A stretch of 64,000 nt of DNA from a virus: IMG/VR virus record IMGVR_UViG_3300042486_001390, positions 1-64,000 of that record. One strand, 5' to 3'. Positions 5,959 to 44,782 of this stretch are shown piece by piece (the stretch's first letter is position 1; every line of letters begins with the position of its first letter). The notes under the pieces were generated by a model, which did no database searches, had not been told where the DNA came from, and saw only the letters and a program-made list of their open reading frames with translations. The position numbers were made by a program, and so were the translations under genes.

Positions 5959-6414
5959 TTATCTTAATATATCTAGCCCTCGATTTCTGATTCTTTGAGC
6001 AAAGTCTTTATTAAATACTTTTGATTTTTTAATCACAGTAATCTGATTGCTTGGCCAGTATTCTAGCAGAAAATCAACGAGTTCTATTGAAGTTGTGTGT
6101 ATTCTAGCTTCTTTGCTGTATCCTTTTAGTAATTGGTAAAAAAGAAATAGTCCACTAAGCAGGTCTTTTTCAATTACCCAAAATACTAATCTAATTAATG
6201 TATTGCTAAGTCGCCAGTGTTTTAGAAGTTGGCATAGTTTTGTTTCCTCTAATTGCCAGTAACTGAAAAAATCCAAAACATTAGAGATTACTGGGTAGTC
6301 GCTTCTATTTACGAAGTCAGATACTAGAGCATCGATTGCTTCTAGAGATTGACACATCCCGATGGATGCAATCGATAATCCCTCTAATTTATATCCTGAG
6401 ATAATTTGTAGCAT
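5959..6414 (-). CDS. Hypothetical protein immediately downstream of the CRISPR array
   Basis: 151-aa ORF starting 64 nt after the last repeat. Confidence 0.6.
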   Translation of the reverse strand: MLQIISGYKLEGLSIASIGMCQSLEAIDALVSDFVNRSDYPVISNVLDFFSYWQLEETKLCQLLKHWRLSNTLIRLVFWVIEKDLLSGLFLFYQLLKGYSKEARIHTTSIELVDFLLEYWPSNQITVIKKSKVFNKDFAQRIRNRGLDILR

Positions 6415-6477
6415 GGTTTTAAAGTTTTGTTTTGTTTTCTTGCCTTAGTTTGCCTTGCCTTGTCTTGTATTTGTTTC

Positions 6478-6804
6478 CTTGCAATCTACTTAACAAGTCA
6501 AGCCGATTGTTACTATCCTTAAAGCCTCTATTGATTGCCATTAAGAAGCTCTTGCAATCTACTTAACAAGTCAAGCCGATTGTTACGGAATGACCGCAAT
6601 TATACGAAAAAGCGACTAAAGACTTCTTGCAATCTACTTAACAAGTCAAGCCGATTGTTACGTTACCGATTAGATTGTGGGGATTGTGGACGGTTCCCTT
6701 GCAATCTACTTAACAAGTCAAGCCGATTGTTACAAAACCCACCGATCCAGACACTTTAGCGGTTCTGGCTTGCAATCTACTTAACAAGTCAAGCCGATTG
6801 TTAC
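6478..6804 (-). CRISPR. CRISPR array: 5 identical 36-bp repeats and 4 spacers (35-39 bp)
   Basis: CTTGCAATCTACTTAACAAGTCAAGCCGATTGTTAC at 6478, 6551, 6626, 6698 and 6769; spacers of 37, 39, 36 and 35 bp; minus-strand repeat GTAAC...ATTGCAAG, co-oriented with the nuclease gene. Confidence 0.97.
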
Positions 6805-8486
6805 CCAGTCTCCCAGAGTGTAAGCTGCGTATAGCCTGCGTTGACTGTTTGCGCGGGTTGCGAGTGGATCGACCTTTTCCTTGTTTTTTTCTTGGGTGTC
6901 ACTGGCTCGGAGGTCAAAACCAGTAAGGTTTCGAGGGTTTCTTCGCCGAGTAACAATCGGCTGGACTTGTCAAGTAATTCCTCCTGCGCTGATTCCTTAT
7001 CGAAATCCTTCAGAGGCTTAACTTCCCCGGTACAAGCCGGGTAGCTTCTTACGAAGTCTGCTTTCCCTAAGATGTTGATTGCGGCGGCCACATCTCTGGG
7101 TAAAGTACATCCACACTCTAAACATTTATGGGTGCGGGTTGATAAACTTTTTTTAACACGATTGCCACAGCGAGGACAATCTTGACTGGTGTAAGCTGGT
7201 TGAACTTTGATAAACTCTCGGTTGGGAGCTTTCATTTTCGTTTCAAGAAAACCAGTTAATTGTCCTAAACTAGCATCAGCAAAGGATTTATTTAATCCCC
7301 CTTTGGCTTTCGCGTTATTGCGTTCGTAGCCTTTACCGTCTTCTCTTTTTTTCGGTTTAGGTCGTCGCATTAAATTCTTTAAGTTGAGGTCTTCTACGGC
7401 TACAGCGCCATGATTTCTAGCAATATCGGTACTTAGGGCATGATTAAATCCTTTGCGTTGTCTTGCTATTTTTTCGTGAGTTTTGGCAACTTTAGCACGA
7501 GTTTTAGCGAGATTTTTGCCGTCTTTATTTTCCCCTGCTTTATACTGTCTAGCGGTTTTTCTTTGCAGTCTTGCTAGTCTTTTTTGCTGTTTTCTATAGT
7601 ATTTGGGCGGGTCAATTTGTTGCCCGTCGCTGGTACTAATTATATATTCTAGTCCTACGTCAATACCGATTGCTTTATCAGAATCAGGTAGATCATTTAC
7701 TTCAAATTCACCAAATAGACTTAGATAATATCCCGATGGGTATTTGATAATTGATACGGTAGAGGCTTTTCTGTCACCCCACCGAATGTCTAAGGTATTG
7801 TTGATAATCTTTAAATCGCCTAATGTTTTACCACAGCTACCTATAGATATTTTATCCCCTTTTCTAACAGCGCAATCGCTGATCTCAGAATAAAGAGATT
7901 TAATTTTATCTTCTTTTCTTTTAAATCTAGGAAGTTTTCTGTCTAAATTCTTTTTATCAAGTTTGGTGTAAGCTTTCCAAGAATCAGCAAGCTTTTTTAA
8001 AACCCCTTTAACAAAAGCCATAGGGATGTCTTTGCATAGTTCTGGACATTTTTCTTTTGTAATACAGCCACATAACCCAAAATAATTATCAGATTTTAAC
8101 CGCCGTTGAATAGGGATATGAACAGGATAAGAGTAACCTGCTTTTTGTCTTTTTTCTCTAGCTATCTGTATTTTAACTTTTTGCTTGCCAGTTAAATATT
8201 TAGGGGTGTAAAGGGGATTAGGAAGGGATTTACCTTTTTCGTTTTTTAGGGAGTCAATAAATTGAGGTTTTTTAGCTAAACGACGTTTAACCCGTTTAAC
8301 TGGTTTTCCTGTTATTTGCTCAAGCTCGTCGTAATACTTATTAAGCTGATATTCCATCAGTAGATCTAACCCAAAATTCCAGACAGCTTTAATCTCGTCC
8401 ATCCAGCGATCAATATAGGTTCGCTGAGTAGCATTAAGGTTAAGCTTTATGTCCGCAATAGTTTTTTTGACTAGCATGGTTTTCAT
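6801..8486 (-). CDS. tnpB: TnpB/Cas12f-like RNA-guided RuvC nuclease (type V effector candidate)
   Basis: IS605 OrfB-like N-terminus (VWNFGL), RuvC-I IGIDVGL, RuvC-II AVEDLNL, zinc finger CPRC...CLEC, RuvC-III RDVAAAINI; abuts the CRISPR array. Confidence 0.9.
   Translation of the reverse strand: MKTMLVKKTIADIKLNLNATQRTYIDRWMDEIKAVWNFGLDLLMEYQLNKYYDELEQITGKPVKRVKRRLAKKPQFIDSLKNEKGKSLPNPLYTPKYLTGKQKVKIQIAREKRQKAGYSYPVHIPIQRRLKSDNYFGLCGCITKEKCPELCKDIPMAFVKGVLKKLADSWKAYTKLDKKNLDRKLPRFKRKEDKIKSLYSEISDCAVRKGDKISIGSCGKTLGDLKIINNTLDIRWGDRKASTVSIIKYPSGYYLSLFGEFEVNDLPDSDKAIGIDVGLEYIISTSDGQQIDPPKYYRKQQKRLARLQRKTARQYKAGENKDGKNLAKTRAKVAKTHEKIARQRKGFNHALSTDIARNHGAVAVEDLNLKNLMRRPKPKKREDGKGYERNNAKAKGGLNKSFADASLGQLTGFLETKMKAPNREFIKVQPAYTSQDCPRCGNRVKKSLSTRTHKCLECGCTLPRDVAAAINILGKADFVRSYPACTGEVKPLKDFDKESAQEELLDKSSRLLLGEETLETLLVLTSEPVTPKKKTRKRSIHSQPAQTVNAGYTQLTLWETG
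6950..6976 (-). ncRNA. Anti-repeat (putative tracrRNA core) inside the 3' end of the nuclease ORF
   Basis: Plus strand GTAACAATCGGCTGGACTTGTCAAGTA is 25/27 identical to the inverted repeat; the RNA duplex would have one mismatch and one G-U pair. Confidence 0.8.
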
Positions 8487-8511: not shown

Positions 8512-8543
8512 TAAATCTACCATAAGCTTTATAGAAATGTCAA
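8512..8543 (-). promoter_or_regulatory. Sigma70-like promoter of the nuclease gene (copy 1 of a 32-bp duplication)
   Basis: Minus strand TTGACA-N18-TAGATT with an extended -10 TG; 30/32 identical to 9038-9069. Confidence 0.65.
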
Positions 8544-8552
8544 GTAAGAAGT

Positions 8553-8996
8553 CTAAAGATTTTTTGGGATACCAGTTCCCACATCAGAACCTATAGCCCA
8601 ACCCTTATAAAAGCTAAAGCCAGTAGTATCAATATGAAGGGGAAAACCTAACTCTTCCCAGCAGTATAATAGTCTTAGTACATCAACAGTCTGAACCGTA
8701 TAATTTAATCCTGTTTCAGTGACGATAAATTTTTCAAAAATCTCTGGGGCAACTAAAACAGAACAATAGTTAGTGTCGTCAAATTTACCAGACTTTTTAG
8801 CTAATTCAGAAGTAATTGCGATCAAAATCTTTTTTGTAAGTAATCTTTCTTGCGATATATTGCTATCTAAGTTAGTCCAAGCAATAAATCTAACAATATA
8901 ATCAAATTTTAATTCTGTTTGATCTTTGGCAATTTTTCCAGTTACTCCATAAACAGGAGCATTAAAATTTTGTTGCACTTCTGGAGAATTAGACAT
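8553..8996 (-). CDS. Hypothetical protein between the duplicated promoters
   Basis: 147-aa ORF flanked by the 32-bp direct repeat. Confidence 0.65.
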   Translation of the reverse strand: MSNSPEVQQNFNAPVYGVTGKIAKDQTELKFDYIVRFIAWTNLDSNISQERLLTKKILIAITSELAKKSGKFDDTNYCSVLVAPEIFEKFIVTETGLNYTVQTVDVLRLLYCWEELGFPLHIDTTGFSFYKGWAIGSDVGTGIPKNL

Positions 8997-9037: not shown

Positions 9038-9069
9038 TAAATCTACCATAAGCGTAATAGAAATGTCAA
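9038..9069 (-). promoter_or_regulatory. Sigma70-like promoter (copy 2 of the 32-bp duplication)
   Basis: TAAATCTACCATAAGCGTAATAGAAATGTCAA; its -35 box overlaps the ATG of the divergent RHH gene. Confidence 0.65.
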
Positions 9070-9212
9070 ACAATAAGCCTAAAAATTATTATCCTCTTAA
9101 CGTCCGTACTTCGCTACCTGAATATAAAAAACTAAAAACCTACTGTGATTCCCAGAAGCGGTCAATAACCGAGGTAGTTCGGGAATTAATTAGAAGTTTA
9201 CCCGATGACTGA
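9063..9212 (+). CDS. 49-aa ribbon-helix-helix (CopG-like) regulator, absent from the ORF track
   Basis: Manual translation MSNNKPKNYYPLNVRTSLPEYKKLKTYCDSQKRSITEVVRELIRSLPDD: beta-strand LNVR plus two helices; such RHH genes accompany cyanobacterial tnpB. Confidence 0.75.
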   Translation: MSNNKPKNYYPLNVRTSLPEYKKLKTYCDSQKRSITEVVRELIRSLPDD

Positions 9213-10076: not shown

Positions 10077-10511
10077 CTATGATTTTACCACTCCTGAAGC
10101 AGGTACTCGATAAACCAGTACAGGCGGGTATTCATGAATATAGGTCTTCATCACGCCATTTATTGAGTCAGCATGAATATACTCCCCATCTCCTAAATAG
10201 ATGCCTACATGACCATCTACCCCTGACTTATGGAACATTAGAACATCACCTTTACACAGATCACCTTCAACCCTATCTAGTAAGCGATCAAGAAATTTGA
10301 CTAAGAAGTTATTCCGGGGAATCCGTTCGTAGTTTTCAATAATGAAATCATGGGGCAAGAATCCGACTTTAATCCCCACGCCAGCGATAAATCCTACACA
10401 ATCGGTTCCAATACCTTTGAGGGATTGACCATGAAACCAGGGAGTACCGAGCCATTCAAGAGCTTCGGTAACAATTTGATTACCCAAAGAATCGTTTTTT
10501 AGTTCGTTCAT
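10077..10511 (-). CDS. NlpC/P60 phage tail peptidase
   Basis: WLGTPW, GTDCVGF (catalytic Cys), HVGIY and IHA; follows the TMP. Confidence 0.9.
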   Translation of the reverse strand: MNELKNDSLGNQIVTEALEWLGTPWFHGQSLKGIGTDCVGFIAGVGIKVGFLPHDFIIENYERIPRNNFLVKFLDRLLDRVEGDLCKGDVLMFHKSGVDGHVGIYLGDGEYIHADSINGVMKTYIHEYPPVLVYRVPASGVVKS

Positions 10512-13500
10512 TTTGTGTATTTTCCCGTTCTTTTAATTGATTCAAACTATAACCCATATCATTCCGTGATTCTACAGTCACGTTATTGGTGTTATTAATT
10601 ACCAAAGACTGATTAGAGTTATTGTTATTTGAGGTTGTGGAGTAATTAGGCTTACCCCCGACAAATCCCCCATTAGCATAGTTCTTAATAGGAGCATTAT
10701 TTCTGTAGTCTAGATAAGCTTCTGTTTCTTTAGGGGTAAGAACCAATTCGCCTTCATTAGCTACGATTAATCGAGGTTTTCGGCCTCCCGACATTGCTCG
10801 TTCGCGCTGAAAAGCTGAAATGATATTTTTCTCTATCGGAGCATTGGCATCCCCAACTTTTCCACCATCACTAAATAGGCTGAATCCTGTACCTAGAGAA
10901 AAGGCAGAAGCCGGAGCAGAAGCAAAGCTAGAGGCTCCTATACTACCAAGTGACCCAATCGAACCAAGTCCGCCTAGTCCCCCACTAAAAATCCCTGTTA
11001 TTCCACTAAGTAGCCCGTTAAATAAGCCACCTCCGCCACCTCCCCCAAAAATAGAGGAAAAGATGTTACCTACTGGTTTAAAGATACTGTTTAGGGCATT
11101 AGTAAAGAAGTTGCCTACTGGCCCGATGATTGCATTAAATACTGACTCAAATGCCTGAGTTATTGGTTTAGTAAAACCATCGATAGCAGAAGTTAGGGCA
11201 TCGATAGCAGGCTTGGTAATACCCTCGACAAATTTAGTTGCAATATTTAAGCCAAGACTACTAAAAGCTGATCCTATTCCTTTTCCTTCTCTAATATCAG
11301 AGAAAAAGCTTTCAGCTGCGCCACGATTTGGAGAAGCGTCTAACTCCGCTCGTTCTAACCTTAATTCTGCAAGCTTTTCCCATTCTGATCGGATATTGGC
11401 CACATATTCAGCGTATTGTGGTAAGTCTTTGTAAGGTTCTAAATAATCCTCTAATTCCTCTTTTTCTTTTTGTAGGCTAATACGTTCAGCAAAGATAGCA
11501 GAATCATCAAATAAAGTCGGTCGAGACTGAAATTCTAGTTGCATTCTTTGGACAGTTAAATCATTTAACCGATCACGAATGCTCCTGACTGTATCTCTGG
11601 TTTTTCTAAATGATGCTTCTAAGGTAGCTACTCCCTGATTCTTGCCTAATTGTTCAATTGCTTGATCGAGAATTCTTACCCGTTCTTTAGCTAATTCAGC
11701 GTTTTTAGCTAAAACCTCGATACTATCTGTCATCTCTTTGACAAATTCAGGGGGAAGAGCTATACCTTTTTCTTGAAATTCTCCTAAGATTTCTTTTATT
11801 GCGTCGCTGTATTTTTTTTGAGCGTCAGCATTTAAAAGTAAAGTCCGTCGCTGGTCTTGCAAGGATTCAATTTGAGAGCGATATTGACGAGAAACTTCTG
11901 TGGCAGACTTATTAATTTCCTCTTGAACCGTTAAATAGCCTTTAGAATTTATTGTTAAATCGGTAACGCTTTCAGATGCGTCACGAATAGTTCTATTTAA
12001 GTTGCGAGCTTCTTCCTCTTGCTGCTGTCTAAATTTTATTGATCTGTCAAGAGCATTGTTTAGATTTTGTTGCTCTTCTAGTCGTCTTAAAAGCTCGTCA
12101 GCGTTTTGGTTGGCTGTTTCAGCGTTGCGAATTTGATCAGCGGCCGCATCAAGATTACCCGTAGGAAGATTAGGAACGGGCGGTAAATTAGGACTCTGGA
12201 AGTTAATCGGATTGTCTTTAGGAACCGGTGGTAAATCGGCATCCCAGAAGTTATCTTGATTTTGATTAGGTAAAGTTGGTAATTGGGCTATAGGTGGGGG
12301 ACTACTAAATTCTGGACCACCTTTTCCTTCTTTTGTTTCTTCTTTTGTTAAAACACGGGGAGGTTGTAAAACAGGAACAGAAGTGGGCAAGGGGACAGGA
12401 GAAGGGTTAGGTGTGGAGTCTTTAATGGATTGGCTAATTGCATTAGTAGCATTAGTTATTATTGTTCGATTATTTAGTTGATTGCCGTTAATGTTTGCAT
12501 AAGCAGTTACAATATATTCTTTCCCATTAATGTTTACCAGTCCAACGTTACCAATAACTTTAGAGTTATTTCCAATTTTTCCGCCGATTTCATTATTGTA
12601 CTTAAAATTTCTTGTTTGTCTCAGAGATTGTTCAGCTAATTGACTTGCAGGATCTTGATTTTTAATTAAAGACTGCATAGCTAACGTTACGTCTTGTGCT
12701 GTTGAAATGTTTGGAGTTCCACTGCCTGGTATATTTAAATACCTAGAAATAGTAGTGTTTTTATAACCTTCTTTTTTGGCTAATTCTGTAGCTCTGGTTA
12801 GCCCACCTAGCTGATCAATTAAAACATTAGTTGCCGTATTATCTGACTTTTCTAGCATTAATTGTATTAACTGTTCAACTGTTCTAACTTGATTGGCTTT
12901 TAATTGTCCGTGTGGATCAACCAAAGGCAATTTTATAGCGATAGCATCTTTTAAGGAAAGTTTTCCGCTTGTTATTTCTTTGGCAATCAAATCAGCAATA
13001 ATAACTTTAATTGTACTAGCTGGCGACGCTGGGGGTGTTTGAGCATTTTTAGAATATACAGTTTTTCCGCCAACTTCTTGAACTAAAACAGATTGAATAT
13101 TTTTTGGTAATCTGTTAGTGATTTGTTGCTGAACTGATGGAGAAGGGTTAGGGGTGGAAGTTGATGGAGTGGGTGAACCACCTTGATTTCTTCTGATTTG
13201 TCGAATACGGTTTGATGCTCCGCTGTTAGCAGGATTGCCGTCATATCGCAGTGCGTCTAGTTCGGATTGAGTACGAGGGGCATTTGGTTGGTATTTTCGT
13301 AAAGACTGATCGTAAACCTTTAACAGGTCTTCCATCCGTTTCATACCTTGCCCTGGGTAATTAGCCCCTGGGAAAGATGCCCATTCTGTGCGGGTTGCGT
13401 TAATTGCCCCAGGAATATCTCCCTTAAGAAGCTCGTCCAATCCACCTCTCATTAAAATACGGCTTAATGCGACTAAATCTTGAGAGAAAGAAGAAAAATC

Positions 13501-16500
13501 TTTTAATCCTAATTTCGCTTTTTCTTCATCCCATGTAAAATCCATGATCTGGTATCTTCCAGATGCCGATGAAGTGGTTGATCCAAACGGGATTCTTCGG
13601 CGTGGATGGTCTGCAAAAGAACTAAATTGTCCATGGCCAAAAAGGGTGTTATATCCTTGATTTGGCATCTTGGCAGTACCTTCTGCGTAAGCAATAACAT
13701 CAAGAAAGGCTTTGACGCGAGGATTGTTTAAATGCTGAGATAATTCTTGACCGCGTGGTGTTAATCCTTTGGGAATTGAAGACGACTGTGGCGGTGTCGG
13801 CGGTAAAAACCCTCCCCCATTCCACACAGGAGCAGGGGTGAAATTACTGGGAGCCGGTAATATTATTCCTTCCTTAGCTTTTCTAATTGCCTCAGCAGTT
13901 TCCTCTATACTTTTTACTAAGTCTTCTCCAGAAGTCTTGATATTTGGGGGAATAGCCACTAACTCAGAATTGATTAATTTAATTGGCTCTGGAAGTGTAT
14001 TAAGATTTGTGACAATATCCTTGATTGATTGGGGAATAAAGCCTAATTCTTTATTGGTTTGTCGGATTAAATCAGCTAGAGTACGATTGAGGTTTTCTTG
14101 AGTCCGTTTAATATCCTCAATCGTTCTCAGTCTATTTCTTTCAGCGTCTTGCTGTTGCTCTTGTAGATTACGGATATTTCTTAGAGTAGAGATATAGGAA
14201 GTTTCTATTTCCTCGGTTCGGGATTGGAAGGTGCGTCCGCGACTGGCAAGGTCAGCTTGTCCCTGGACAAATTCTAGGAAAATTTCACCTAATTCTTTAC
14301 CAGCGTCGCTTGTACCGGGTATCAATAACCGATTTTTAACTTGCTGTACCCTGATTCTATCAGTCGTATCTAGTAACTGATTTTGGGCATTCAAGAGGTT
14401 CTTATCGAGTTCCCTGACTAAATCACTGTAACTTTCAGATAGGGAACGATTCTCTTTAAATGCTGACAGTTGAGCGTCTTCAATCTGTCTTCTATAATCT
14501 TCAATCTGACGATTAAAGTCGATTATCTGACGGTCAAGGTTGCGGTAATAGTCTTGTATTTGTTCTTGCTGATCTCTTAAAGATAGTTCGGTTTCAGCTA
14601 TTTGCTGTGTGATATTTGCAATAGCTGTTTTTACTGCTAAAGGATCATCTACGTTTAATACTAATTTTTCTTGCTCTAAGGCTAATTGATTATAAAGAGC
14701 CGCTAAGTTTATCTTGGTTTGTTCCAGTCCGTAGCTAATATTTTGACTGGAGGAGGTTTTATTAGCTAGATTAGTGAGTTGTTCTGCTTTAACAATTTCT
14801 CCACTAGCTTGTTTTTCTTGTATTTGTCTTTTCTTTCTTTCGACAATAATCTCCCGACTAATTTGCTGAATTTCTCTCTCAGTGTTTAAAATATCTCGTC
14901 GAGCAGTTGCGTATTCTTTAGCCTGATTTAAAATAGCTCTTAAAGCGGCGTTGTCTTTTAGGTCAGATTCATACTGATCCATTATTTGCTGAATAGCATC
15001 AGGAGAGAGTAAATTTTCAGCAATTGCTTCACCAAAACTCGCTACATTTAGCTGTTTTAAGTCTTCTTTAAAGTAAGTGCTTAAAACTTTATTGGCAGAT
15101 TCAGATAGCCTTTCGTTTAAAATATTAGAGATAGAGTTAGCTGAATTGCCTAAAGTGGCAATACGCTCTTTAGCAGTCTGTAAGCTTTCTTCTTGAACTT
15201 CAACATTAAACTGAAATTCATTAATTTTCCCTGATGCAAATTGTTGATTTAATCCAATTGAACGACTTAAACTATTTCCTTCATTAGCAAAATTAGCATT
15301 AGCTCTTGTTCTTATAGCAAGATCAAAGGCAACTTGTAATTTTCTATATTCTTTTTCTTGGTCTTTCAAGACTTGTAGATAATCTTGTTCCGCTTTTTTT
15401 AGTTGACCAATTATAGTCAAGAGGTCTATTTTACGTTGTTTGTAAGCAATATCAGTTATATCTTTATTCTTAAAGCTTTGCTCTAACGATGCTAACGCTA
15501 TCTCATATTGTTGAAGGTCAGCAGTAATTCTTGACCCAACGGGACCTAACTGTTTATTAATTAGCTCCTGTTCTTGCTTCATTAAATCCTGCTCTCGCTG
15601 GTTAAATTCAGCTACAGATCGGTCGTTTCCTTTTGCGCTTGCAATTGTTCTTTCTGCTCTGACTAAAGCTAAATTATTTCTGATTTCTTGTAATTCAGAT
15701 GAAAATTGCTTGCTACCTGAAAAATTAGATAAAGTGTCTTGATATTCTTTGAGATTTCCGACTCCAGTAGCCAGAGATTTATCAATGTTTTCTAGTCCTT
15801 GTCGTAATTCTAATAGTGACATAAGCCATTTAGAATTATAAACAAGCCCTAGTGTTAGAACATTAAAAAACTTTTCTCCTCCAGACAATTCCATGTCAGG
15901 CAAAAAGCTTGTTAAACCTTTGCGATTACTGTTATCGGTTTTGTTTTGCCAAACATCAAGAGCTTTTTTAGACTCTTCTAGGGTTCTTACAGCTTGTTTT
16001 AGTTCTTCGCTACCAGCATTTAATGCGTTATAAACAAATTGAATACCAGTTATCACCGCAGTAGGGATAGCCAATGCTTTAATTAATCCTATTCCTGCTA
16101 AAGTAGCAAGGTTTATAGATACTTTTAGTTTACCCATGGCTGTAGCTGTAGATAGAGACGCTACTCCGGCAGCTTGTAAGGATGCACTCATAGCAGCACT
16201 GGCAACGGCTCCTAACCGACCAGCTGCCGCAAATTGCATGACTGATTTTCCTAAGAATCCCATGACTGACAGTAACCCTGCGGCTCCCACTGATGCCACC
16301 GTCCCTAGATTGTCATTTAAGGTACTTAAGCCGGCATTTAATGCCTGTAAAGCAGGGTAAGCGACTACTCCAATTTTTTCCCCTAACTGCATTTGAAGCT
16401 GTTCGGTATTGTTCTGGAATCGAGAGATTTCCGATTGTAAAGTTCCGGTAGAAAGAGAAAGACCTCCAGCACTCATCCGTTTATATTCAGCCGCTAATCG

Positions 16501-19500
16501 AGGTAAAACATCTTGTGCCAAGAGATTGCCTGCTGATGCTTGTTGATAAAATTGAGCAGTGGTCAGCCCTATTGATCGGGCGGCTACATTTAAAGCGTCG
16601 TTTAACCCTCCTGACTCGCTCAATTGCTGTGTGAATTCTTCAACGGAAACAACAGCTTTAGAGGCTATTTGCCCGATAGCTCTAAAAGATTCAGCTTGTT
16701 GTTGGGCATTGGTTTGTCGCGCTGCTAATGCCTCTTGGAATCCTTCAAAAATATTATCTGCCTGCGCTTGTAGTGGAGAATCAGTAGTAATTAATTTGAA
16801 TCTGCTATAAGCAATAGCGGATTCTTTAAAGGATATTCCTAATTTGTCAGCCCTTGCCACTAAAGCGTCAAGAGATTGTTCTACGTTGCCTACACCGGCA
16901 AGATTTAAATTTAATTTAATTCTTTGTAACTCAGTAAAGGCAAGTAAAGAATCAGTAACAGCTTGTTGAATCCTAAAAGGAATATCGTCAATAGCAAAAA
17001 ATAGAGGTCGTAATAAGAATTCTGCTCCTTTGAAAAGAGCAAATCCCCCAATCACCGCCATAGCACTTTTACCAAGACTAATCATACCTCCTGTAGCAGC
17101 ATTAAGTTCTTGGTCGAGAGTTCTGAGTGCTTTGCCGCCGACCGAGAGGAAATTAATAAATCCGTCCGCTTGGGCAATAACGGCTTTTAGTCCAGTTACG
17201 ATGCCGTCTGTAAAACCACTAGAAACGCCCGCTTTTTCAATACTATCGAGAGCGTTGAAAATGTTGTCTCGTTTTTTATTCCAGTCATCAAGAATTTCTT
17301 CTCGTGTTGATTGTTTTGGAAGTGCTTCGGAAAGAAGTTTTTTGCGTTGTTCTAATATTTGTTGCTGTTTTTCTAGTAATTGACGAGCTTTTTTAATATC
17401 CTCAAGATATTCTTTCGCCATTTCGCTTGCTGATTTTACCTGTTTATTTGGTTCAGGTTCGGGATCAGGTGAAGCAACAGGTCGGTTAATAGGAGGGTTA
17501 GGAGGCTGTCCACTACTACCGATATTTTCCCACGGATCAGGTGAAGCAACAGGTCGGTTAATAGGAGGGACAGGAGGCATTCCGCCGCTTGATGTTTGTG
17601 ATTGAACAGAAGATGTAATCTTGGGAGTCTTGAATGTTTTAACTTTTTCTTCTACTTTTTGTAATTGACTTTTGATATTTAATAATATCTGATCGTCAAT
17701 TTCGACCTGCTTCCTAGCTATAGCCTCGTAACTATTAAATATTGGTTTTGGCGGAATTGGTCTGACTATTTCATGTACATCCTTCCATGGATCAGGGATA
17801 GGAGACGGTGTATAAAGAGGAAGTTTTTTTTCAATAACGCTAAACTCAACATCTATAATGCGAGATAGATTAGTATTATTTGGCTGTTTTGGCTGTGGTA
17901 TATTTTCAATAATTGGAATAGCTTCTAAGGGTTTTTGTCGTTGACTTGCTTTTTTTAGCTTAGATGCAACTTTTCCAGTTATTCCAAGCAAACTCAATAA
18001 AGAAGCAACGGTTAACCCATAATTGCCTATAAATTCTAGCAGATCGTTAGTTAATGCTTTATCAGCAGATTCAACTTTTCTAGAAATATGTTTAACTGGT
18101 AGTATTTCGTTAGCTGTTAATTGAAGACTAATAGGCAGTTCTCTATCAGCAACAGCGTCAAAAACATTGCTTGTTGAAAGATTTTTTTCTTTTTCAACAG
18201 GAGGGGTAACTACACTAGAAGATTCTGATAGCTTCGCTTGGTTGCTTTCTATTTGAGGACGTTCAAAAAATCTTAATTGGTAAGGGGTAGATTTTCCAGT
18301 TCCTCCTAAAGATTGTGGTAGAATGCGACTTAATGACTTATCTGGCACTGTTAACCTTGCCATATTTCCATGATCGGGAAGCATAACAGCAGCAAATCCC
18401 ATAGAGCGAGTATATTTCTCTAACTGTTGTGGAGTCATATCTTTTTGACTTTCCATAACAGTTAAATTACCTTCTTTTGTTTTACCGAAAAATACTCTAG
18501 GACGAGGAATTTCATAAGCTAACTGCTGTTTTAACGAGCTATGATAGCCTCCTTTGTAATTAGCTGGCTGTTGAACTTCATCATTATATAAAACATGAAG
18601 ACCGCCGATAAAAGTATCGTAATTGGTTAATTTATTTGATTTAGCTCCGCCATAACCAAATTTTAAATTACCTTGTTTGTTAATACCGATAAAACCCCTT
18701 TCTTCTGCAGCCGCACGATTACGAGATAACTGCAAAACTTGTCCTCTCTGGACAACATCGGCAATCATGTTTACTTGCTGGTTTTTGTCTTGCAAGAAAA
18801 ATTTATCAAACATCGGACCAGAGCTATAAGCAATTGCCTGTTTATCTTGAAAAGCTTTTTTATCAACATCAACTTGCTTAACAACCTCTACCCCGGTTGT
18901 GGCAGGGTTCATCGTGACCCCCTTAAAGGATTCTGTCTGGATAAACTGCTGTGCATTGACAGGCATTCCACTAGAAGCTATAGCAAGAGTAGCTAACAGT
19001 CCTTTCGCGGCAGAATTAGATAATCCTTTTTGTAACTCTTTGACGACTTTAGTGGTTAGTTCTTTTATTTTATTAGTTAATTGATTTTCTTTTTTCTTAA
19101 TACCGTTTTCTACTCCTTTTATTAGGTTTTCCCCCGCTTCTTTGCCTTTCCAAGATGGTGAAGCATTCCCCAGTCCTTTATTTGTTGCGTCGATAATTCC
19201 AATTGCAACATCTAAAGCGTATTTTTCGCTATTATTATTTTGTAATCCAATATTTAACCCCTTAATATAATTTAACCCAGACTGTTTGCCATCACTGGAA
19301 AACATCGAACTAATCGCTTCAAGGTTTTTTGCGAATACTGGAACGCCAGCACTTAAAGAAGATGCAATAACTTCAATGAGTTTGCGTCCGTAAATATTGT
19401 ACTTTTCTTCTATATCGCCTAAATTAATGCCTAAAAAATCAGACGGATCAATTTTGCCAGTAGTTTGAACCTCAAGGTATTCAAGTATCTCATTAGGTCT

Positions 19501-22500
19501 GCGATTGTATTGGTCTGGTGTAAAGCTAGACAAAGGATTTGTTATTATCTCGCTTGGATTTCTCCAAAAAGCACCAGAGTCACCTCTAGTAAATGTTGAT
19601 CGGTTGGCAATTTTTGCTATATCGAGCATTATTTCAGCATCGCCATAGTAATCATTTCCTTTGATCGGTTCGGAAAAAGAGTTAATTGCGCTATAAGCAA
19701 CAGGTTCCTTGAAAACTTGTTTTTCAAAATCAAATCTGTCTCTTCTTAAACTCCATTGATTAAAAGTAGGGTCTATTCCTTGTGTTAAAATAGCTTGGAG
19801 ATTTGCAAAAGCTGTTTTATGTCCAGCGTAAAAATTAGATAATTGCTTAAGTCTAATACTAGCAGAAGCTAACGCATTTTCCGATGGCAAGCTTGATTCA
19901 ATTAATCGTGTAGGGGTAGGATAAGAAATAATATCATTTTTTGGGGGTTCAACAGGAGTAAAAGTTTTTGATAGAGGGAATTTGCTTAATTTTTTTTCTA
20001 GTAGCCCGTCAATTGGTTTACCTTCCCACCCCATCATTTTCGCTTCAACAGCTAAATCTTTTAAGTTAGGAATATTTACATCAAAATAAGATTGAATAAT
20101 TTTTTCAATATCGCCAAGTGATAAACCTGATTCAAATCCTTTAACAACTTCATTAGCTAAACTCCGAAAATCAAAAGAAGAAATTCCTTTTTCTATTCCA
20201 ATTGCCACACCTTTAATTAGGTTTTCTCCCGCTTCTTCCCCCTTCCAAGATGGTGAAGCATTTCCCAGCCCTTTATCAATTTGATCTACTATTTTAAGAG
20301 CGTTCTGGTAGGCGATGTCGCTTGCGCTAGTATCCTTTAATCCTTTTTCTAAACCTTCATTAAGGTTCTTACCTGACTCCAAACCACCTTTAGCTAATTG
20401 AGGTACAATCTGTTTTAATTTGTCGTAAACAGCATCAGTAGCAGCTTTTGCTGTCATACCTTGCTCTTTAACTAATGTAATTGCTTCATTAATAATGCTT
20501 GAAACTGGACTAGCTGTATTTTTAAGTTGATCAAAAACCCTTAATGCTTGTTCTGCTTGATCTGCAATTGCTTTATTTTCTTCTATGTTAATTTGATTAC
20601 CCGCAGTTTGTAGTTTTGCGGCTTTTTTATCAGAAGTTAAAGAGCCAAATACCTGTTTATCGGCTACTATACGATTTCTTAATGCAGACTGTACCTCAGC
20701 GCGAGTTAAAGTATCTGTTTGCTGTGTCGTGGATAATCCAAATAAATCAAATTGTTCTACAGTATCAACTGTACTAGCGTTCAACGTATCAATTAACTCT
20801 GAAACTACTGATTCGGTTACTTTCTTTCCTTTTTTCTCGAAATTTTCAATTAATTTAACTAACTCTCTTTGCTGAAATTCCTTAAGTCCACTGCCGCCAA
20901 TCTGAACACCCCTAAGTTCAGGTATATCTCCACTGGCGACACGATCAAACAACTCCTGTGGTAATTGAGCTAACGCAAGTCCTTGAGAAGCTACTCGATC
21001 TCGCATCGGTATGCCAGCTTTTTTAAGCGATTCTTTGTCAGCTAGATTCATGTCTCGCAAAAACTTGGCTGCATCTATAGCTGTACCGCGTCCTTCTGCA
21101 ATATTAATCATTGCCCCTTTAGCCCTAGCTTCTTGGGCTGACTGAGCATTTAACAATCGGACGGTAATATCTTTGACGTTTAAATCTTTGGCTAAATTAA
21201 GTCTATTATGTCCATTAACTACATAAACTTTCCCGTCTTTAGGATCGCGCCAAACACTGACAACTCCCGCTAAATCATCATCCCATCTACCAACACCAGA
21301 TAAAGAACCAGTCGATCCAGTTTTGCCGTGTACAAGTTTATACTGGAATCGTTCTGGATCAAGATTTAAGTCTGAGATCGGAAGTTTTCCTACCCAGCCA
21401 GGGGAAGTCGGGCTATTTTCTTGAGGAACCCTTTTTAACGGATTCGGAGTTTCAGTAACGCGTAAAGGAATATTCTCAGTCTGTAGATTGCTTGTAGATG
21501 CAGGTAAAAGAATATTCTTGGATTGTATCTGACTTTTGGCATTAAGTAACAGATTGTCAATTAAGGTTACAAAGCCGATTAAAGATTTATTAATACTTGT
21601 CGTATCAAATTCAGGGTTAGCTCTTATTGATGCAATACCCGTTTTAATTTTTTCTAATTGAGAGAAAAGGGTCTTTAAAGATTGAATATCTTTATTAGTA
21701 TTAATTTGTTGGGTGATGCTTTGTATGCCACTGCCAATTGTTTTAATAAAATCAGCGGAAATTTTTCTTGTTTCAACTTGGAATCCACTAAGTTCTTTTT
21801 TCCCTAATTTTGTTCTATCACTTGCTTTTGTTGTTAGTAAAAGTCGAGTTAGTTGGTCAGGGTTAAATTTTTCAGTTAACGATTTCCATATTTCCTCTTT
21901 TCTGGCTCCTGCTCCTGATGCTGGTACGTCAATTCCTTGATCCCTGGCCAACCCTCGTAATTGTTTTACCGTGTAATATTCTGGGTTAATTGCCTTGATG
22001 TTAGCTGGAATAGGGTTGCTTGCTGGGAAGACCCTCTCATCGAAATATGGAGTTATTTCAGTGGTAATCAGAGAATCAGCTTTATTCTTTGCCGCTTTTA
22101 ATACTTTCTGGGTTTTACCCTCAATTTTTTGCTGTTCTTCTTTGCTAATTAATTTAGGGACATTACTGGTAGCCGCTCCCAAGAGCTTCTTAACACCTTC
22201 ACCGGCCATTAACGCCGATCCAGCAACTGCTCCCCCCTGCGATAGGACGCTGATAGTGCCGTTAGTTATTTCGGTTACAAGCTGCACTACTGCTTCCGTT
22301 AGCTGTTGCCCCACTCCAAACGGCAAGCCGCTAAAAGCTTGAGTCATTTGTGTGGCTACAGATTGGATCATTTCCCGACCGCCGGCACTCATCGCCCCTG
22401 CAAGAATATCTCGCATAGTATTGACAACCGTGGCATCTAGCCCCATCGGGAGAGCGTGGAGAGCGGCCGCACCCATAGCAGCCGTTCCCCCTACCTGAAT

Positions 22501-25500
22501 AGCTTTTTTACCTATTGCAGCACCAGGTAAAGCCATTACTGGACGCTCTAAAGCTTGCATTACCGCATAAACGACTTGACCAAATTTAACAACGTCAAGA
22601 GATGTGTCTCGGAAAGCTTTTGAAAGTAGAAGGCTTGCTGTTTTTAATTCTCTTACAAGAGTTAATTGTAGTAATTCTGCAAAATCTTCATTCCCGCTAA
22701 GGTACTGAATTTCTCCCGATTTATCAGGAGTACCAAGTCGTGAAGCTAAAACATCTTCTAATTTTGATTTAGCTGCTACAGCTAAATCATTAAGTTTTTG
22801 TGGTTGATTATCTAGAATTGGTTGTTCTTTTTTTTGTTCGGGAGTATCTATTTTTGCGAAAACAGTTTCTTTAGTAGGCAAAGAAAAATCACTAACGATT
22901 TGCTTTAATAAAGTTGGTGTATATGAACCTAATGGAATTGCTTCTCCTGTTACTACAGGAGAAAGAAGAGTCTCGTTAATTTCTCTTTTCTGAGGGATAA
23001 TGGCTGATTTTTGTCTGGCATTAGAATCAGAAACTTGAGTAGCAAAAGGTTTTGAGTAGCCAGATTGAATTGCGCCTATTATTTTAAGAGGATCCATCAA
23101 TCCGTAATAGTTAGAATCAATGATTGCTCGCTGAATAGTAGTAATTCTATCGTTAAATTTATCACTGCTAGTCGGATCAACTTTTGCATTTCCGAGATCA
23201 ATTGAAGTAATTCCACCTCGTGCAAAAAATACATTTGCTGCAGCTAAATCATTATGAACAACACCCATTTCCTGTAAAGATGCTCCAAGTTGTCCTACTT
23301 GTCGATATAGAATAGATGCAGCTTTATTAAAACGATTGTGTTCTTTTTTAGCAGATGATTGTAATTCTTTGGTTAATACTTTTAGCTCTTCGATTTTAGT
23401 CGCATCTTTGTTGTCTATAGCTAACTCTAATGCTTTATTAGCTTCCTGTATTTTTTGCTGAATTTCTTTGTAAGGACGTGCAATTCGATCAAGTATTTCT
23501 TTTAAAGGACGACCTTGTGTTCTTTCAGTAATTAAAGCCTGACCTGGAACTGCTTTGTACAATAAAGGAGACAAACGACCTTGTAATTTCTCATAAGCCT
23601 TAATTTCATTTTCTGACGCAATTTTTGTCGCTCCTATTGGGTCAAGATCAGTTTTATAAACAAGATTATCTGAAAGAAGAGCAACGGCTCCAAGAAATCC
23701 TGTACCAATTTTTTTGATTTCAGAAATACCAGGAAGAATTTCTTTACCTACGGCATCAAGAAGTTTGTTGTAAGCTAAAATAGCTGATTGCTTTTTTAGA
23801 AAAATTTCAGGAACAGCAACCTGTAATTGTCTTATTTCTTCTTCTTTTGGTAGTGTTGATGTGTCAAGGCGTGTATTTAGAAAACTTGTTAATTCTCCAG
23901 AAAACTCATCAACTTCAAAAGTTTTTATACTGTCTTTGGTTTTTTGCGATAGTTTTCCTCCTGTCTTAATAAATTCATCAGCAACATCAGCTATTTTTTT
24001 GTATGCTTCAACAATTTTTTTTGTGTAAGTTTGCCCAAACGTACTTTCTTCAGAAGTAAACCACGGTATTGTTTCGGTTCTAATCTTTTCTGTCCGTCTT
24101 TTAACTTCGTTAGGCTCTAAATTTCCGGCATACCAGCTAGGAATATTAGCAAGTTTTCCTGATTTAAATTCTAATAATGCGCTGTTTATACTTTTTGCTT
24201 CTTGTTGATACTTTTGATACCCAGCAAAATCTTGAGGATTTTCTGGTAAATTTGCACCCCCTTGTCTAAATTTTTCAGCTATAAATGGAACTAAAGGTTC
24301 CATTAAACTTTTTAAAGCTTGTGACACAGGCTGTAATTCTTTTGTATCAAAAGAAGATATAAGACGAAGCCCTTCGAAAAACTTTGCAATAAATCCTTCT
24401 ACGCTTACGTTAGGACTGCCACTGCTGTATCCTTGCAAGAATCTATGATAAGGTAGAGTCTTATCAAATTCCCCTGTTTCTTTAAGTGACTTTAATTGTA
24501 GAGTCGATCCCAATACTTCATATAGCTTATCGCCTGCATGAACAACTTTTGATTGTTGACCTGGGGTTATATCTGGCTGTTCAGCATTAATAGTCTTATA
24601 AAATAAATCTAGAAAAGGTTGTTTTTTAAATAAATGTTTTTGGTGGTGATTTGATAGCCCAAAAGGAGTATCACTTTCAATTGAGTGGAATTGGTTAGTA
24701 TTGACTCCAATTCCTAATAACTTGGCAAACCCGAGAGGGTCTCCACTTAGCAACGCTGCATTAAATCCTTTAGGTGTATTTTGAGTAAAATTAAGAAAGG
24801 GATAAGCCATGGCTAATGCGCGTGGCTGCATTCCCAAATATGCTGCTGTTTGACTATACTGAAGGTTATCTGCTCCTCCTAAAGAATAGCTAACAACGCT
24901 GCCTTTTTTACCCTGTTCTTCAGCTAATCTGGTATTGGCTATTGCTTGCGCTGCGGCTGTAGAATAACCAAACGGGTTAATAGCGTTTACTACCTGCCGA
25001 AAAGCGTTAATTGCTGTATCTATGGTTTCTCCAGCAGCAAAATCAGGGGCAATCTCAGCTATTTTATCCCTAATCATTTTTTCTAAAAGATTAGGGTTTT
25101 GTTTATCAGTATCAGTTTCAGGATTTTCTACAGGAATAAATCGTTTATTAGGAGCTAATAATTCAATTGATTGAGTAACTTGTCTGCCACCCTGACCTCC
25201 CTTAAATTGCGCTCCTCCAATGACACTAACTACATCTTCCCCCTCTCTTAGTAATGGAAAACCTGCTTTTCTTTCGTTGTAATATTTTTGGCTTTCTACT
25301 GATGTTCTATAAGACCTCATCCCTTGTATAAATTTTAATAAAGGAGCCATTTCTTGAATAAAAGAATTAACAAATCCTTTTAATACTTGTGTTTGTGGCT
25401 GTGCGTCAACTAAAAACTGAGCTATGGCTTTTTTCCCCGCTTCTCGCGGCTTGATACCAGGATTTTCCGATTCTATTTTTTGTAATACTTGTTGATAAAT

Positions 25501-26343: not shown

Positions 26344-26705
26344 TAGCTTTTCTCCCCTACTAATTGAATTATTTCGTCGTATAGTCCGCAATCGACTATT
26401 ATCTGAGTGGCGAAGACTGGCACTTGGCCAGCTTGCATAGCTTTTAACAGAATTTGAGCGGTTTCTTGATCAAGAAAATATTTTTTATTTTCTTTAAACC
26501 GGAAAGGAAGAAAATCACTGGGTTTTGGAGGTTGAGACTGTGATTTTTCTTTTGATTGAGCCATTAAGTAAATGTTAACCATGGCGGCAATCTGACTGAC
26601 TGTGTCTGATAGTGAATTAATCTCTTCACATTTGACTTTTTGAATCCCTGAATATTTTTTCAGGATTAACCAGTCTGGCCACTCTTCCCACTCTTCGATA
26701 GGCAA
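26343..26705 (-). CDS. Tail assembly chaperone, frameshift-extended part (lambda gpT-like)
   Basis: Frame stays open upstream to about 26803, across an A-AAA-AAC slippery site at the end of the upstream gene. Confidence 0.75.
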   Translation of the reverse strand: MPIEEWEEWPDWLILKKYSGIQKVKCEEINSLSDTVSQIAAMVNIYLMAQSKEKSQSQPPKPSDFLPFRFKENKKYFLDQETAQILLKAMQAGQVPVFATQIIVDCGLYDEIIQLVGEKS

Positions 26706-30216: not shown

Positions 30217-30987
30217 CTAATTGTCGCAGACTACCCGAAAACCATTATCGTAGTAGCGGTAGTCGCGACGGTCTTCGTAGCAGCGGTAAGCGGAACGGCA
30301 GTAAATCGGATAGTTGTACCAGGAACCACCCCGCAGACAACTATCTTTGCACCACTCCCAAACATTACCATTCATGTCATATAGTCCCCAACCATTGGGC
30401 TTTTTCTGTCCTACGGGATGAGTTGTGTTATTAGAATTTCCGTCATACCAAGCATAATCTCCTAACTGATTGACATCATCACCAAAATAATAGCGAGTGG
30501 TTGTCCCCGCACGACAAGCATATTCCCATTCCGCTTCTGTGGGTAGGCGATAGGTTTTCCCGGTTATTTGACTCAATTTCTGACAAAAGGCTTGAGCATC
30601 GTCCCAACTAACCTTTTCTACGGGATTTTGGGGATTATTTTTGAAGTAAGAAGGATTGGTTTCCATTACCGCTTCATATTGTGCCTGAGTAATGGGATAT
30701 TTTCCAATCTTAAAACTGTTGACTTTAACTTGGTGTTGAGGATTTTCATCATCACTAGCATCGGGATCACTATCAGGAGATCCCATGAGAAACTCACCTG
30801 CTGGTAAGCTTACCATTTCTAATGCGATTTGATTGGGTAGTTTTTCGGTCATCGTGAACTCCTTACTCCTAAATGTTTTGTGTTCTAAACCCGCAAGTTT
30901 AGCTAACTCAACCAGATCATCTGTATCTGCATTAGCAAGACGCAGGTATAGTTCTTCAACTTCTCGAATAAAATCTGCATCACTCAT
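30217..30987 (-). CDS. FGE-sulfatase (SUMF1, C-type lectin fold) protein; candidate DGR target
   Basis: FLMGS, PITQAQY, RLPTEAEWEYACRAG, GLYDMNGNVWEW and RGGSW...GFRVV. Confidence 0.9.
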   Translation of the reverse strand: MSDADFIREVEELYLRLANADTDDLVELAKLAGLEHKTFRSKEFTMTEKLPNQIALEMVSLPAGEFLMGSPDSDPDASDDENPQHQVKVNSFKIGKYPITQAQYEAVMETNPSYFKNNPQNPVEKVSWDDAQAFCQKLSQITGKTYRLPTEAEWEYACRAGTTTRYYFGDDVNQLGDYAWYDGNSNNTTHPVGQKKPNGWGLYDMNGNVWEWCKDSCLRGGSWYNYPIYCRSAYRCYEDRRDYRYYDNGFRVVCDN

Positions 30988-41046: not shown

Positions 41047-41095
41047 TTTTTATTTGGTTGATGATTGTTGACTGATAGCTGATAACTGATCGAAA

Positions 41096-41587
41096 CTAAG
41101 TAAATAATCTTGATGCAATACTAAGTAAATACACCCATTCTTCTTCAAGCATTAACATCATTCCAGAAGGATCGGGATTGGTAAGTAAGCAAAAGCTTAC
41201 TTCGTCTATGCGATCACTGTCGTAGAATAACTCAATATCAGTATTTGGAAATACTGTCATAAAGCCAAATTTAAACTTGGCATTTTGACGATTTTCGCAG
41301 GTTAGTGTAGCTGAATGACTTGGATTCTCCCACGGAATACGATCTCTAAAGCTTTGATAAGTTATTTTTAGTTTCCAGTCAATAACTGAGGGAAAGTCTT
41401 CTTTAAAATGTTCTTCCTTTACCCATTTAGCAATTTCGTCGATTATCCATTCTTGATCTTTTTGGATGAAGTAGTGAACGCCTTCTGAATATCGAAACGG
41501 GAATAACTTTGTTTCGTACCAGTTTAACTTGAACCCTTGCGGGTCTGAGTCAATTTTAGGGAATTGCCCTATATCCATCATTGTCAT
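41096..41587 (-). CDS. DUF6876-like protein (paralog of 44783-45118)
   Basis: FRYSEGVHY...WIIDEIA...SATLTCE; likely start MTMMD after a GGAG RBS. Confidence 0.55.
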   Translation of the reverse strand: MTMMDIGQFPKIDSDPQGFKLNWYETKLFPFRYSEGVHYFIQKDQEWIIDEIAKWVKEEHFKEDFPSVIDWKLKITYQSFRDRIPWENPSHSATLTCENRQNAKFKFGFMTVFPNTDIELFYDSDRIDEVSFCLLTNPDPSGMMLMLEEEWVYLLSIASRLFT

Positions 41588-41623
41588 GGTTTTTACTCCT
41601 AAATAAATTGTTTTTACTGACAA

Positions 41624-44149: not shown

Positions 44150-44204
44150 GGTTTTTACTCCTAAATAATTGTTAGCTGACAACTGATAACTGATAACTAA
44201 TTTA

Positions 44205-44732: not shown

Positions 44733-44782
44733 TTTTTTGGCTCCTAAATAATTTGTTTTTACTGATAACTGACAACTGATAA

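Follow-up and report, generated by a model that had tools for sequence, protein, structure and literature searches.

Does a CRISPR (short palindromic repeats, clustered and regularly interspaced) array that begins inside the stop codon of a TnpB-like nuclease gene form one working RNA-guided system with that gene, and if so, to which family does it belong and against what would a phage direct it? We addressed these questions for a locus in the first 64 kb (hereafter ‘the window’, the whole stretch of 64,000 nucleotides (nt) that was analysed) of a 90,564-bp virus record, IMGVR_UViG_3300042486_001390 of IMG/VR, rated 100% complete by CheckV. A prior reading of this DNA, made from the sequence only, had proposed a phage-encoded intermediate between TnpB and Cas12 in which nuclease, anti-repeat and array are fused. 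Our analysis places the locus in the type V-U2 (C2c8) group and suggests that it is probably a working minimal V-U2 system of a phage infecting Microcystis, a bloom-forming cyanobacterium, used for RNA-guided cutting of small plasmids in a phage-versus-plasmid conflict.

The anatomy on which that reading was based was borne out. The open reading frame (ORF) encodes a TnpB-fold protein of 561 amino acids (aa) with an intact D-E-D RuvC triad and a zinc finger: in an alignment of 26 family members, D276, E365, C437, C440, C455 and C458 are invariant and D465 is present in at least 90%, and the catalytic residues stand in motif contexts (GIDxG, xVEDL and RDxxAAxNI) alignable to a TnpB-type chain in the PDB. 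The conserved protein core spans roughly residues 1–480, and the final ~80 codons read through the tracr-like region. The TAA stop (6803-6801, gene strand) supplies nt 2–4 of the first of five identical repeats, a stop-to-array offset of −3, so that nuclease gene, ORF-embedded anti-repeat and array make up one unit of ~2 kb on a single strand of the phage genome (Table 1). The absence of tnpA, cas1, cas2 and cas4, first claimed for the window, extends to the complete 90,564-bp record, in which Cas1, Cas2, Cas4 and Y1 transposase gave zero matches while positive controls matched; the nuclease gene itself is present in a single copy in that record.

Table 1. Features of the nuclease-array locus (window coordinates)
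Feature	Position	Strand	Basis or remark
Promoter-like site, TTGACA-18 nt-TAGATT, TG ahead of the second hexamer	8514-8543	-	28 nt 5' of the ORF start
cas12 (type V-U2, C2c8-like) ORF, 561 aa, ATG start	6801-8486	-	ORF list, profiles, alignment
RuvC-I to RuvC-III span	7092-7661	-	26-sequence alignment; motif contexts align with PDB TnpB-type chain
Catalytic residue D276	7659-7661	-	
Catalytic residue E365	7392-7394	-	
Catalytic residue D465	7092-7094	-	
Zinc finger C437/C440/C455/C458		-	
Anti-repeat, proposed 5' part of tracr-like RNA	6949/6950-6976	-	complementarity search and duplex energy
144-nt stretch from anti-repeat to repeat 1; proposed tracr or natural single-guide scaffold and/or array leader	6805-6948	-	
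CRISPR array, 5 identical 36-nt repeats and 4 spacers	6478-6804	-	
Repeats	6769-6804, 6698-6733, 6626-6661, 6551-6586, 6478-6513	-	
Spacers	6734-6768 (35 nt), 6662-6697 (36), 6587-6625 (39), 6514-6550 (37)	-	

The promoter-like site upstream of the gene matches the consensus at 10 of 12 positions (a consensus match only) and is the sole strong minus-strand candidate between positions 6300 and 8700. It lies within the first copy of a 53-nt direct repeat (8512-8564 and 9038-9090, 85% identical); the second copy stands 5' of the next gene (8553-8996), which suggests that a promoter cassette has been reused.

Affiliation with type V-U2 and conservation of the gene-array layout

The nuclease passes the NCBIfam C2c8 model (NF038192, V_cas_c2c8) by a narrow margin, with 366.9 bits against a cut-off of 350 over model positions 4–456 of 457. 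It fails the IS200_TnpB model (170.7 bits against 425) and passes the broad guided_TnpB subfamily model (218 against 100), and Pfam recognizes only OrfB_IS605 and Cas12f1-like TNB domains. Apart from one 98% identical copy, its nearest database proteins are 45–51% identical, and the named ones among them (cyanobacterial) are C2c8 in NCBI. In a maximum-likelihood tree of 37 rows from a quick search, drawn without Cas12p, the protein falls within a V-U2-like clade of 31 rows that has 100% support in the Shimodaira-Hasegawa-like approximate likelihood ratio test and is separate from six TnpB-like outgroup rows. There it groups at 99% with proteins from Xenococcaceae, Chroococcus and another cyanobacterium (SBLK), with viral and chromosomal rows interleaved across the V-U2 tree. 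The locus is a member of a known, little-studied group, and the suggestion that it might represent an independent lineage is therefore unsupported. C2c8 is rare, with matches above the cut-off in 6 of 401 sampled cyanobacterial genomes, and we found no functional study of V-U2 in the literature searched. The 2020 classification places the V-U2 effector C2c8 under Cas12f3, according to PMC7229846.

Occurrence of this family in a cyanophage has also been described: phage vB_AphaS-CL131 (hereafter CL131) carries a V-U2 locus with a 10-spacer array, published in 2018 (PMC6293099), for which the paper reports no tracrRNA (trans-activating CRISPR RNA) and leaves the direction of the array open. The CL131 protein belongs to the same family, with 38% identity to the window protein over 90% of its length. 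V-U2 loci including CL131 share with the window a cyanobacterial or cyanophage setting, downstream same-strand repeats of 36–37 nt and a lack of other cas genes; the window differs from CL131 in its predicted ORF-embedded anti-repeat, in an apparently fixed direction from gene to array and in a putative 5' PAM (protospacer adjacent motif).

Among solved structures, the best relative of the family profile is Cas12p (PDB 9jfs; 262.7 bits, E = 8e-77), followed by ISDra2 TnpB at 172 bits; the single window protein scores 93 bits against Cas12p and 96 bits against TnpB-like chains. Cas12p (‘Cas12 hacker’, proposed type V-P; bioRxiv 10.1101/2025.01.20.633832) is a phage-encoded nuclease of 500–700 aa regarded as an early TnpB-to-Cas12 intermediate, for which biochemistry and a structure are available: it uses a tracrRNA and a crRNA (CRISPR RNA), its PAM is GTN, and host thioredoxin activates it. 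Its guide joins a 185-nt tracrRNA to a 37-nt repeat, the 3' end of which pairs with tracrRNA nt 7–10. The likeness to our family extends through an alignment from the N-terminus to RuvC-III and, on the pairing predicted here, to a repeat that pairs with the 5' part of the tracrRNA. The solved Cas12p is longer (741 aa), with ~128 extra N-terminal residues that have no counterpart in the window protein and with additional insertions, and its pseudoknot is AAAC:UUUG where the window repeat ends instead in ..GCAAG.

Whether the junction of gene and array is a trait of the family or an accident of one phage can be judged from relatives, which we collected from IMG/VR, genomes and metagenomes. Close homologs without arrays had been named as the sign of a chance insertion beside an orphan array; instead, 18 of 25 diverged relatives carry a downstream same-strand array of at least three repeats, one carries two repeats, four carry none and two lie at contig ends and are unjudgeable. 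In a second set of 11 relatives, seven have a downstream array (one of them merely a three-copy 10-mer) and four have none. Of 12 diverged loci, 10 have their stop codon within repeat 1. In L146 the stop instead ends 4 nt before the array, and in CL131 the annotated ORF stops at locus position 4407, which is 256 nt ahead of the array, a later in-frame stop lying 112 nt ahead of it. Because of this recurrence, the TnpB-like layout (a scaffold overlapping the 3' end of the ORF with guides directly downstream, here combined with an array) is a conserved trait and not a chance insertion; several diverged lineages of V-U2 have arrays that start within the stop codon or directly at it. The repeats themselves vary among lineages, with their guide-adjacent 3' ends kept (..TTGCAAG, ..TGGCAAG, ..TTGGAAG, ..TTGAAAG).

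Chromosomal C2c8 loci above the cut-off are organized differently. In four of the six (L280-L283) the array follows the gene at a distance of 145–800 nt and has repeats ending in ..GGGATTGAAAC, whereas the window array starts inside the stop and has repeats ending in ..TTGCAAG; the other two (L285 and L286) have repeat arrays only upstream of the gene. One of the four, L283, comes from a genome of the genus Microcystis (G206) and scores 491.7 bits, with its array ~800 nt downstream and repeats unlike that of the phage.

The 3' tail of the nuclease ORF

The anti-repeat that had been noted inside the ORF was confirmed. It occupies 27–28 nt (ORF nt 1511–1538), pairs with repeat nt 1–27, is 93% complementary to every repeat, and ends 144 nt before repeat 1. 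The predicted anti-repeat:repeat duplex has an energy of −43.0 kcal/mol, which none of 300 shuffled repeats reaches (z = −7.9), and repeats from ten other loci attain −32.3 kcal/mol at best.

We examined how the tail of the ORF varies by counting variable sites at codon positions 1/2/3 in three groups of related loci. For L130, L140 and L038 the counts were 39/14/143 in the body of the gene, 4/4/7 in the segment from −330 to −176 nt and 20/21/16 in the last 175 nt; the corresponding counts were 29/7/106, 2/3/0 and 2/3/4 for L131, L133, L137 and L145, and 90/68/218, 9/16/14 and 22/23/23 for L144 and L200. In the L131 group, the tail is also two- to three-fold less variable than the rest of the gene. 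The ORF of the cultured phage CL131 ends at a stop at aa 466, ahead of the tail, and the tail DNA is still close to that of its sisters. Since variable sites cluster at third positions in the body and this codon-position bias is missing from the last ~330 nt, the ORF 3' tail behaves as RNA-coding or leader sequence rather than as protein.

Further features of the tail recur among loci. Two blocks just 5' of repeat 1, CCGCGCAA and CAGCTTAC..CTGGG, are common to loci with tails that cannot otherwise be aligned. In 8 of 14 loci, despite their differing repeats, the segment best complementary to the repeat ends 119–145 nt ahead of the array, and all seven loci that were folded as single strands form a long-range helix between this segment and repeat 1, enclosing 125–145 nt. 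A complement to the guide-proximal tail of the repeat is found 85–121 nt before the array in L038/L130/L140, L144 and L200 and also, by eye, in the fold of L146; since 0.1–2 such matches per locus are expected by chance, these possible pseudoknot partners are only suggestive, and none was found in the window. Rfam returned no family match, with one sub-threshold IS009 match at 7225-7335. One full-length V-U2 relative, L042 from a Nostoc metagenome-assembled genome, has no detectable array; it carries the CAGCTTAC block before the stop and a second copy ~200 nt downstream (at ~4615 and 4812), and may represent a single-guide or decayed state.

Parts of the gene are represented among contigs assembled from the RNA libraries of four studies. 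Two of these studies each have a contig (6775-6980 or 6777-7050) that comprises the anti-repeat, the scaffold and the first 28–30 nt of repeat 1, and 6000-6775 is among the parts left uncovered. The contig ends at 6775 and 6777 are not RNA ends, because an assembly with k = 31 must break in a 36-nt repeat. These contigs offer a weak hint that the locus is expressed. The small shares of words in runs X16-X20 say nothing about habitat.

Spacers, plasmid targets and host

A search of 401 cyanobacterial genomes with the 15-repeat array of a near-identical phage locus (L002) returned two full-length spacer matches on one 8.8-kb contig of a single genome. This contig is a circle whose unit measures 8,719 bp, and related small contigs are present in the same genus. 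We compared seven small contigs (the 8.8-kb one and six further ones), with four chromosomal pieces (~74 kb) as a control, with the spacers of all near-identical loci, using only spacers of at least 25 nt (84 of 87, three short ones being dropped) and a threshold of 78% ungapped identity. Matches to at least one of the seven small Microcystis contigs were found for 52 of the 84 spacers, including three perfect ones (39/39, 36/36 and 35/35) and others of 35/36, 36/38 and 37/39. By comparison, shuffled spacers gave 0/84, the four chromosomal pieces none, and spacers of other phage groups 0/141. The four spacers of the window itself reach 29/35, 27/36 (below threshold), 33/39 and 31/37 on the plasmids; the one at 6587-6625 has its best matches in the plasmid integrase region (L316 659-696, within a Phage_int_SAM_1 ORF, and L318 5285-5323). 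Protospacers occur on both plasmid strands and many lie in the Rep gene, and several spacer families match the same plasmid sites in variant form.

On the 5' side of the 52 protospacers the flanking sequence is strongly biased: position −2 is T in 45, position −1 is T in 34 and position −3 is A or T in 40, against a background T of 0.29. On the 3' side the composition is flat. Such a pattern suggests a T-rich 5' PAM resembling A/T-T-T, which in side and kind is what a type V effector with gene-to-array transcription should have.

One of the target contigs matches plasmid NZ_CP026286.1 (6,987 bp) of Microcystis aeruginosa NIES-2549 at 100% identity, which identifies the target genus as Microcystis, and four target contigs are self-closing, with units of 8,719, 9,033, 8,799 and 9,028 bp. 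The plasmids encode a large Rep-like protein of the primase-helicase type, with a DUF3987 domain in L319 and L321 and a DUF3854 domain in L316 and L320, one of which also has a Toprim match below threshold; the large ORF of L304 (a 1005-aa Rep) had no match in Pfam or PHROGs and no relative in IMG/VR by pattern scan. They also encode a tyrosine integrase, and L319 adds a protein with a Mu-type DNA-binding domain.

Phage and plasmids have several sequences in common. The Rep of L319 (2167-5127) has a homologue in the phage, a 903-aa zinc-finger/Toprim-like/DUF3987 protein (G000 82002-84710, beyond the window) with which it shares 31% identity across 844 aa (E = 2e-95). A motif of ~50 nt precedes several phage genes (window 41062-41090, 41583-41653, 44147-44194, 44729-44780 and 45112-45166; G000 85897-85951) and recurs on plasmids L304 (7640-7692), L316 (2656-2715) and L319 (811-858) at 77–93% identity, possibly as a signal for regulation or replication common to both. 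The region 46377-47064 of the window (ORF 46423-46923 and nearby) resembles plasmids L304, L318, L319 and L321 over 40–255 nt at 69–90% nucleotide identity. When 20 kb of the phage was searched against Microcystis genomes, matches were found in 17 of 17; two regions, 30338-30849 (~510 nt inside ORF 30217-30987) and 46137-46387 (165 nt and an adjoining 87 nt), have many copies there at ~75–95% identity, which indicates that the phage carries host-type repetitive or mobile elements. These multi-copy elements support Microcystis as the host. Elsewhere in the window, a single ORF of 5,303 aa (10480-26391) occupies part of the tail-gene region and presumably encodes a giant tape-measure-like protein.

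The content of the array differs widely among near-identical phages, though a Cas1-Cas2 adaptation module of their own is absent. IMG/VR contains 36 near-identical gene loci, 32 with an array and four cut at a contig end, giving with the window 33 arrays; the proteins are 97–98% identical (one 93%), the arrays have 3–15 repeats, and together they contain 87 distinct spacers. Because shared blocks carry unique spacers on both flanks, the arrays are mosaics without simple polarity, and spacer gain at the gene-proximal end was rejected on the same observation. Renewal would presumably proceed through host adaptation proteins acting in trans and through recombination between arrays; according to one preprint's proposal, type I-D adaptation proteins serve the V-K and V-U2 arrays of cyanobacteria in trans, in which case the leader would lie inside coding sequence.

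Other potential targets gave little. None of the 87 spacers matches the 90.6-kb phage outside its array; the L002 array matched only arrays and anti-repeats, plus chance 14- to 16-mers, in five related phage records; and neither it nor the window array had a match among GenBank phages at E values up to 1. A scan of IMG/VR with the 16-nt core of three related spacers returned arrays and two contigs (16 and 19 nt), the latter judged to be chance. The window repeat, allowing up to three mismatches, is absent from the 401 cyanobacterial genomes. The 27-spacer array of another phage group (L145) had one marginal match (E = 5e-4) in these genomes, and plasmid targeting is therefore not generalized to other groups. 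In a cyanophage group other than that of the window, spacer 6 of L133 matches related phage contigs outside their arrays (L137 7256-7289, 32/34; L136 6122-6151, 29/30) with the 5' flank ..GAGTT, which hints at phage-versus-phage targeting in that group.

Proposed mechanism, alternatives and related systems

In TnpB systems a single transcript is made and then processed, and the position of the sole strong promoter-like site on the gene strand, upstream of the ORF, fits such a scheme. For the window locus, one transcript from the promoter-like site at 8543-8514 would give rise to the nuclease mRNA, a tracr-like RNA and the crRNA precursor. The final ~175 nt of the ORF would supply the tracr-like RNA, which would begin (5' end) with the anti-repeat, and pairing of the anti-repeat with a repeat would close an internal scaffold of ~144 nt. 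Where the partner is repeat 1, spacer 1 would consequently sit on one contiguous RNA, a natural single guide of the TnpB omega-RNA type, and for later spacers the same scaffold could pair in trans. Guided by a spacer, the RuvC core of ~480 aa would then cut double-stranded DNA beside a 5' A/T-T-T-like PAM, and the phage would thereby remove or hold down circular plasmids of 7–9 kb that share replication functions with it. The plasmid matches, taken with the shared Rep homologue and the shared ~50-nt repeat, suggest that the locus serves inter-element conflict.

Several observations weigh against this reading. The long anti-repeat is statistically clear only in the window lineage and in L130 (z = −4.5); it is modest in L144, L146, L039 and L204 (z = −2.0 to −2.5, with the segment of L204 away from the usual distance) and weak in L038, L140, L199 and L200; by the shuffled-repeat test it is absent from L131, L145, L141 and L041. 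RNAalifold on a MAFFT alignment of eight sequences yielded no convincing consensus structure (−1.3 kcal/mol), and in 15 near-identical copies of the phage gene tail and body are equally variable, an uninformative comparison. Assembled RNA-library contigs cannot show strand, ends or level, and DNA carry-over into them is possible. Most protospacer matches are 78–94% identical, so that the true targets would be variants outside the contigs examined. The GTN PAM of Cas12p is unlike the motif proposed here, G standing at −3 in only 7 of 52 protospacers. The plasmids carry no defence gene recognizable by PADLOC (a DruC match at E = 8e-4 was ignored), and the mosaic form of the arrays gives no simple picture of spacer gain.

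An effector that is functional and does not cut is one alternative: it would bind its targets and silence plasmid genes or replication in the manner of Cas12m or Cas12c, or have a regulatory role. The many protospacers in the Rep gene would suit such a function. The CL131 paper (PMC6293099) relays a proposal that the small size of V-U effectors precludes crRNA-dependent cleavage and that their role may be regulatory, and a review describes plasmid-borne V-M systems as acting by binding. We nevertheless consider this account unlikely, given that the D-E-D triad is invariant or nearly so in 26 members, unlike in Cas12m, Cas12k and Cas12c, that Cas12p, the closest characterized relative, cuts double-stranded DNA, and that targets lie on both strands and at non-promoter positions. 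The bias towards plasmids might alternatively reflect spacer acquisition, host adaptation proteins sampling high-copy small replicons in the course of infection; destroying the plasmids would then bring the phage no specific gain, the real function being general competition with any co-resident element, other phages included. This would accommodate the 32 of 84 spacers that remain unmatched, the lack of known defence genes on the plasmids and the L133 spacer that matches phage contigs; against it, variant spacer families at the same plasmid sites point to repeated selection there, the strongly T-rich 5' flank is as expected of effector-compatible spacers, and no spacer matches the window's own phage type, GenBank phages or the four chromosomal pieces, and we judge it improbable.

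A far more remote prospect is that the array is an orphan serving a host Cas protein, or a decoy, beside an unrelated TnpB by chance, or that the gene is a mobile IS200/IS605 TnpB. The missing cas1, cas2 and cas4 and the restriction of Pfam matches to OrfB_IS605 and TNB would fit, as would the GenBank annotation of the CL131 homologue as a transposase. Conservation largely refutes this explanation: gene and array stay linked across lineages 29–50% identical, in which differing repeats keep the same 3' end and anti-repeats change along with the repeats. Nor is the phage repeat found in the cyanobacterial genomes searched, and the single gene copy, the absence of tnpA and the failed IS200_TnpB score speak against a mobile TnpB. 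A working, plasmid-directed nuclease thus remains our preferred reading. As a tentative extension of it, the plasmids could be parasites or direct competitors of the phage, held in check by a 2-kb CRISPR unit that renews its spacers without cas1 or cas2 of its own; if true, this would imply either routine hijacking of host adaptation (e.g. type I-D) with the leader inside coding sequence or Cas1-independent spacer gain.

Several published systems parallel parts of this scheme. The general idea of a TnpB-to-Cas12 intermediate is in print as TranC (Jin et al., Cell 2025, as cited in a review, PMC13565253, and a preprint). What stands of the sequence-only reading is the fused anatomy and its conserved topology, with the independent lineage given up. 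As in TnpB omega-RNA and TranC, the proposed scaffold of the window locus extends over the 3' end of the nuclease gene, with the guides immediately after it, and the idea of an omega-RNA split into tracrRNA and crRNA fits the locus. TranC can use either a crRNA with a tracrRNA or a single right-end RNA, and the contiguous scaffold, repeat and spacer 1 of the window would allow the same. Unlike TnpB and TranC, the window gene is phage-borne, has no transposase or transposon ends, occurs once and is followed by a multi-spacer array, and its protein shows only weak similarity to LaTranC (E ~1e-6).

The closest parallel in targets is Cas12r of Thermus Lalka phages (bioRxiv 10.64898/2026.04.20.719267), described in that preprint as a minimal phage type V system with diverse spacers, for which inter-element conflict is proposed. 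Most of its spacers are said there to match small mobile elements of the host with tyrosine integrase and primase-helicase genes that share a gene type with the phage. Cas12r differs, according to the same text, in effector lineage and host, in using a crRNA only (a tracrRNA was not found), in its ARG PAM and in its 29-bp repeats, and its targets are tRNA-integrated elements where ours are free circular plasmids of 7–9 kb. The effector family, its occurrence in cyanophage, a tracrRNA-using phage TnpB-like Cas12 (Cas12p) and phage type V systems directed at integrase and primase-helicase elements are thus already in print. In the literature searched (supplements of related papers may hold some of this), we did not find the ORF-embedded tracr with an array at the stop as a V-U2 trait, a tail free of protein constraint, a natural PAM, spacer turnover or Microcystis plasmid targets.

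A phage CRISPR system directed at a small host-resident element also has a reported precedent in ICP1, whose type I-F CRISPR-Cas is said to act against the Vibrio cholerae PLE, as Seed and colleagues reportedly described in 2013. ICP1 encodes its own adaptation genes within a complete system, and the island that it targets is proven to act against phages, whereas the window phage lacks adaptation genes and an anti-phage role of the plasmids would be conjectural.

V-U2 is among the original ‘uncharacterised’ type V groups, and with a predicted tracr-like RNA, a direction of transcription and a PAM from natural protospacers in hand, a test of its activity can be designed directly. An effector core of ~480 aa within a unit of ~2 kb is of interest for compact genome editors, and a natural TnpB-like layout combined with a multi-spacer array bears on the origins of type V systems. 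The locus also raises the question of how a phage array turns over quickly without adaptation genes, and it points to an arms race in lakes between a Microcystis phage and small Microcystis plasmids, paralleling that of Cas12r in Thermus.

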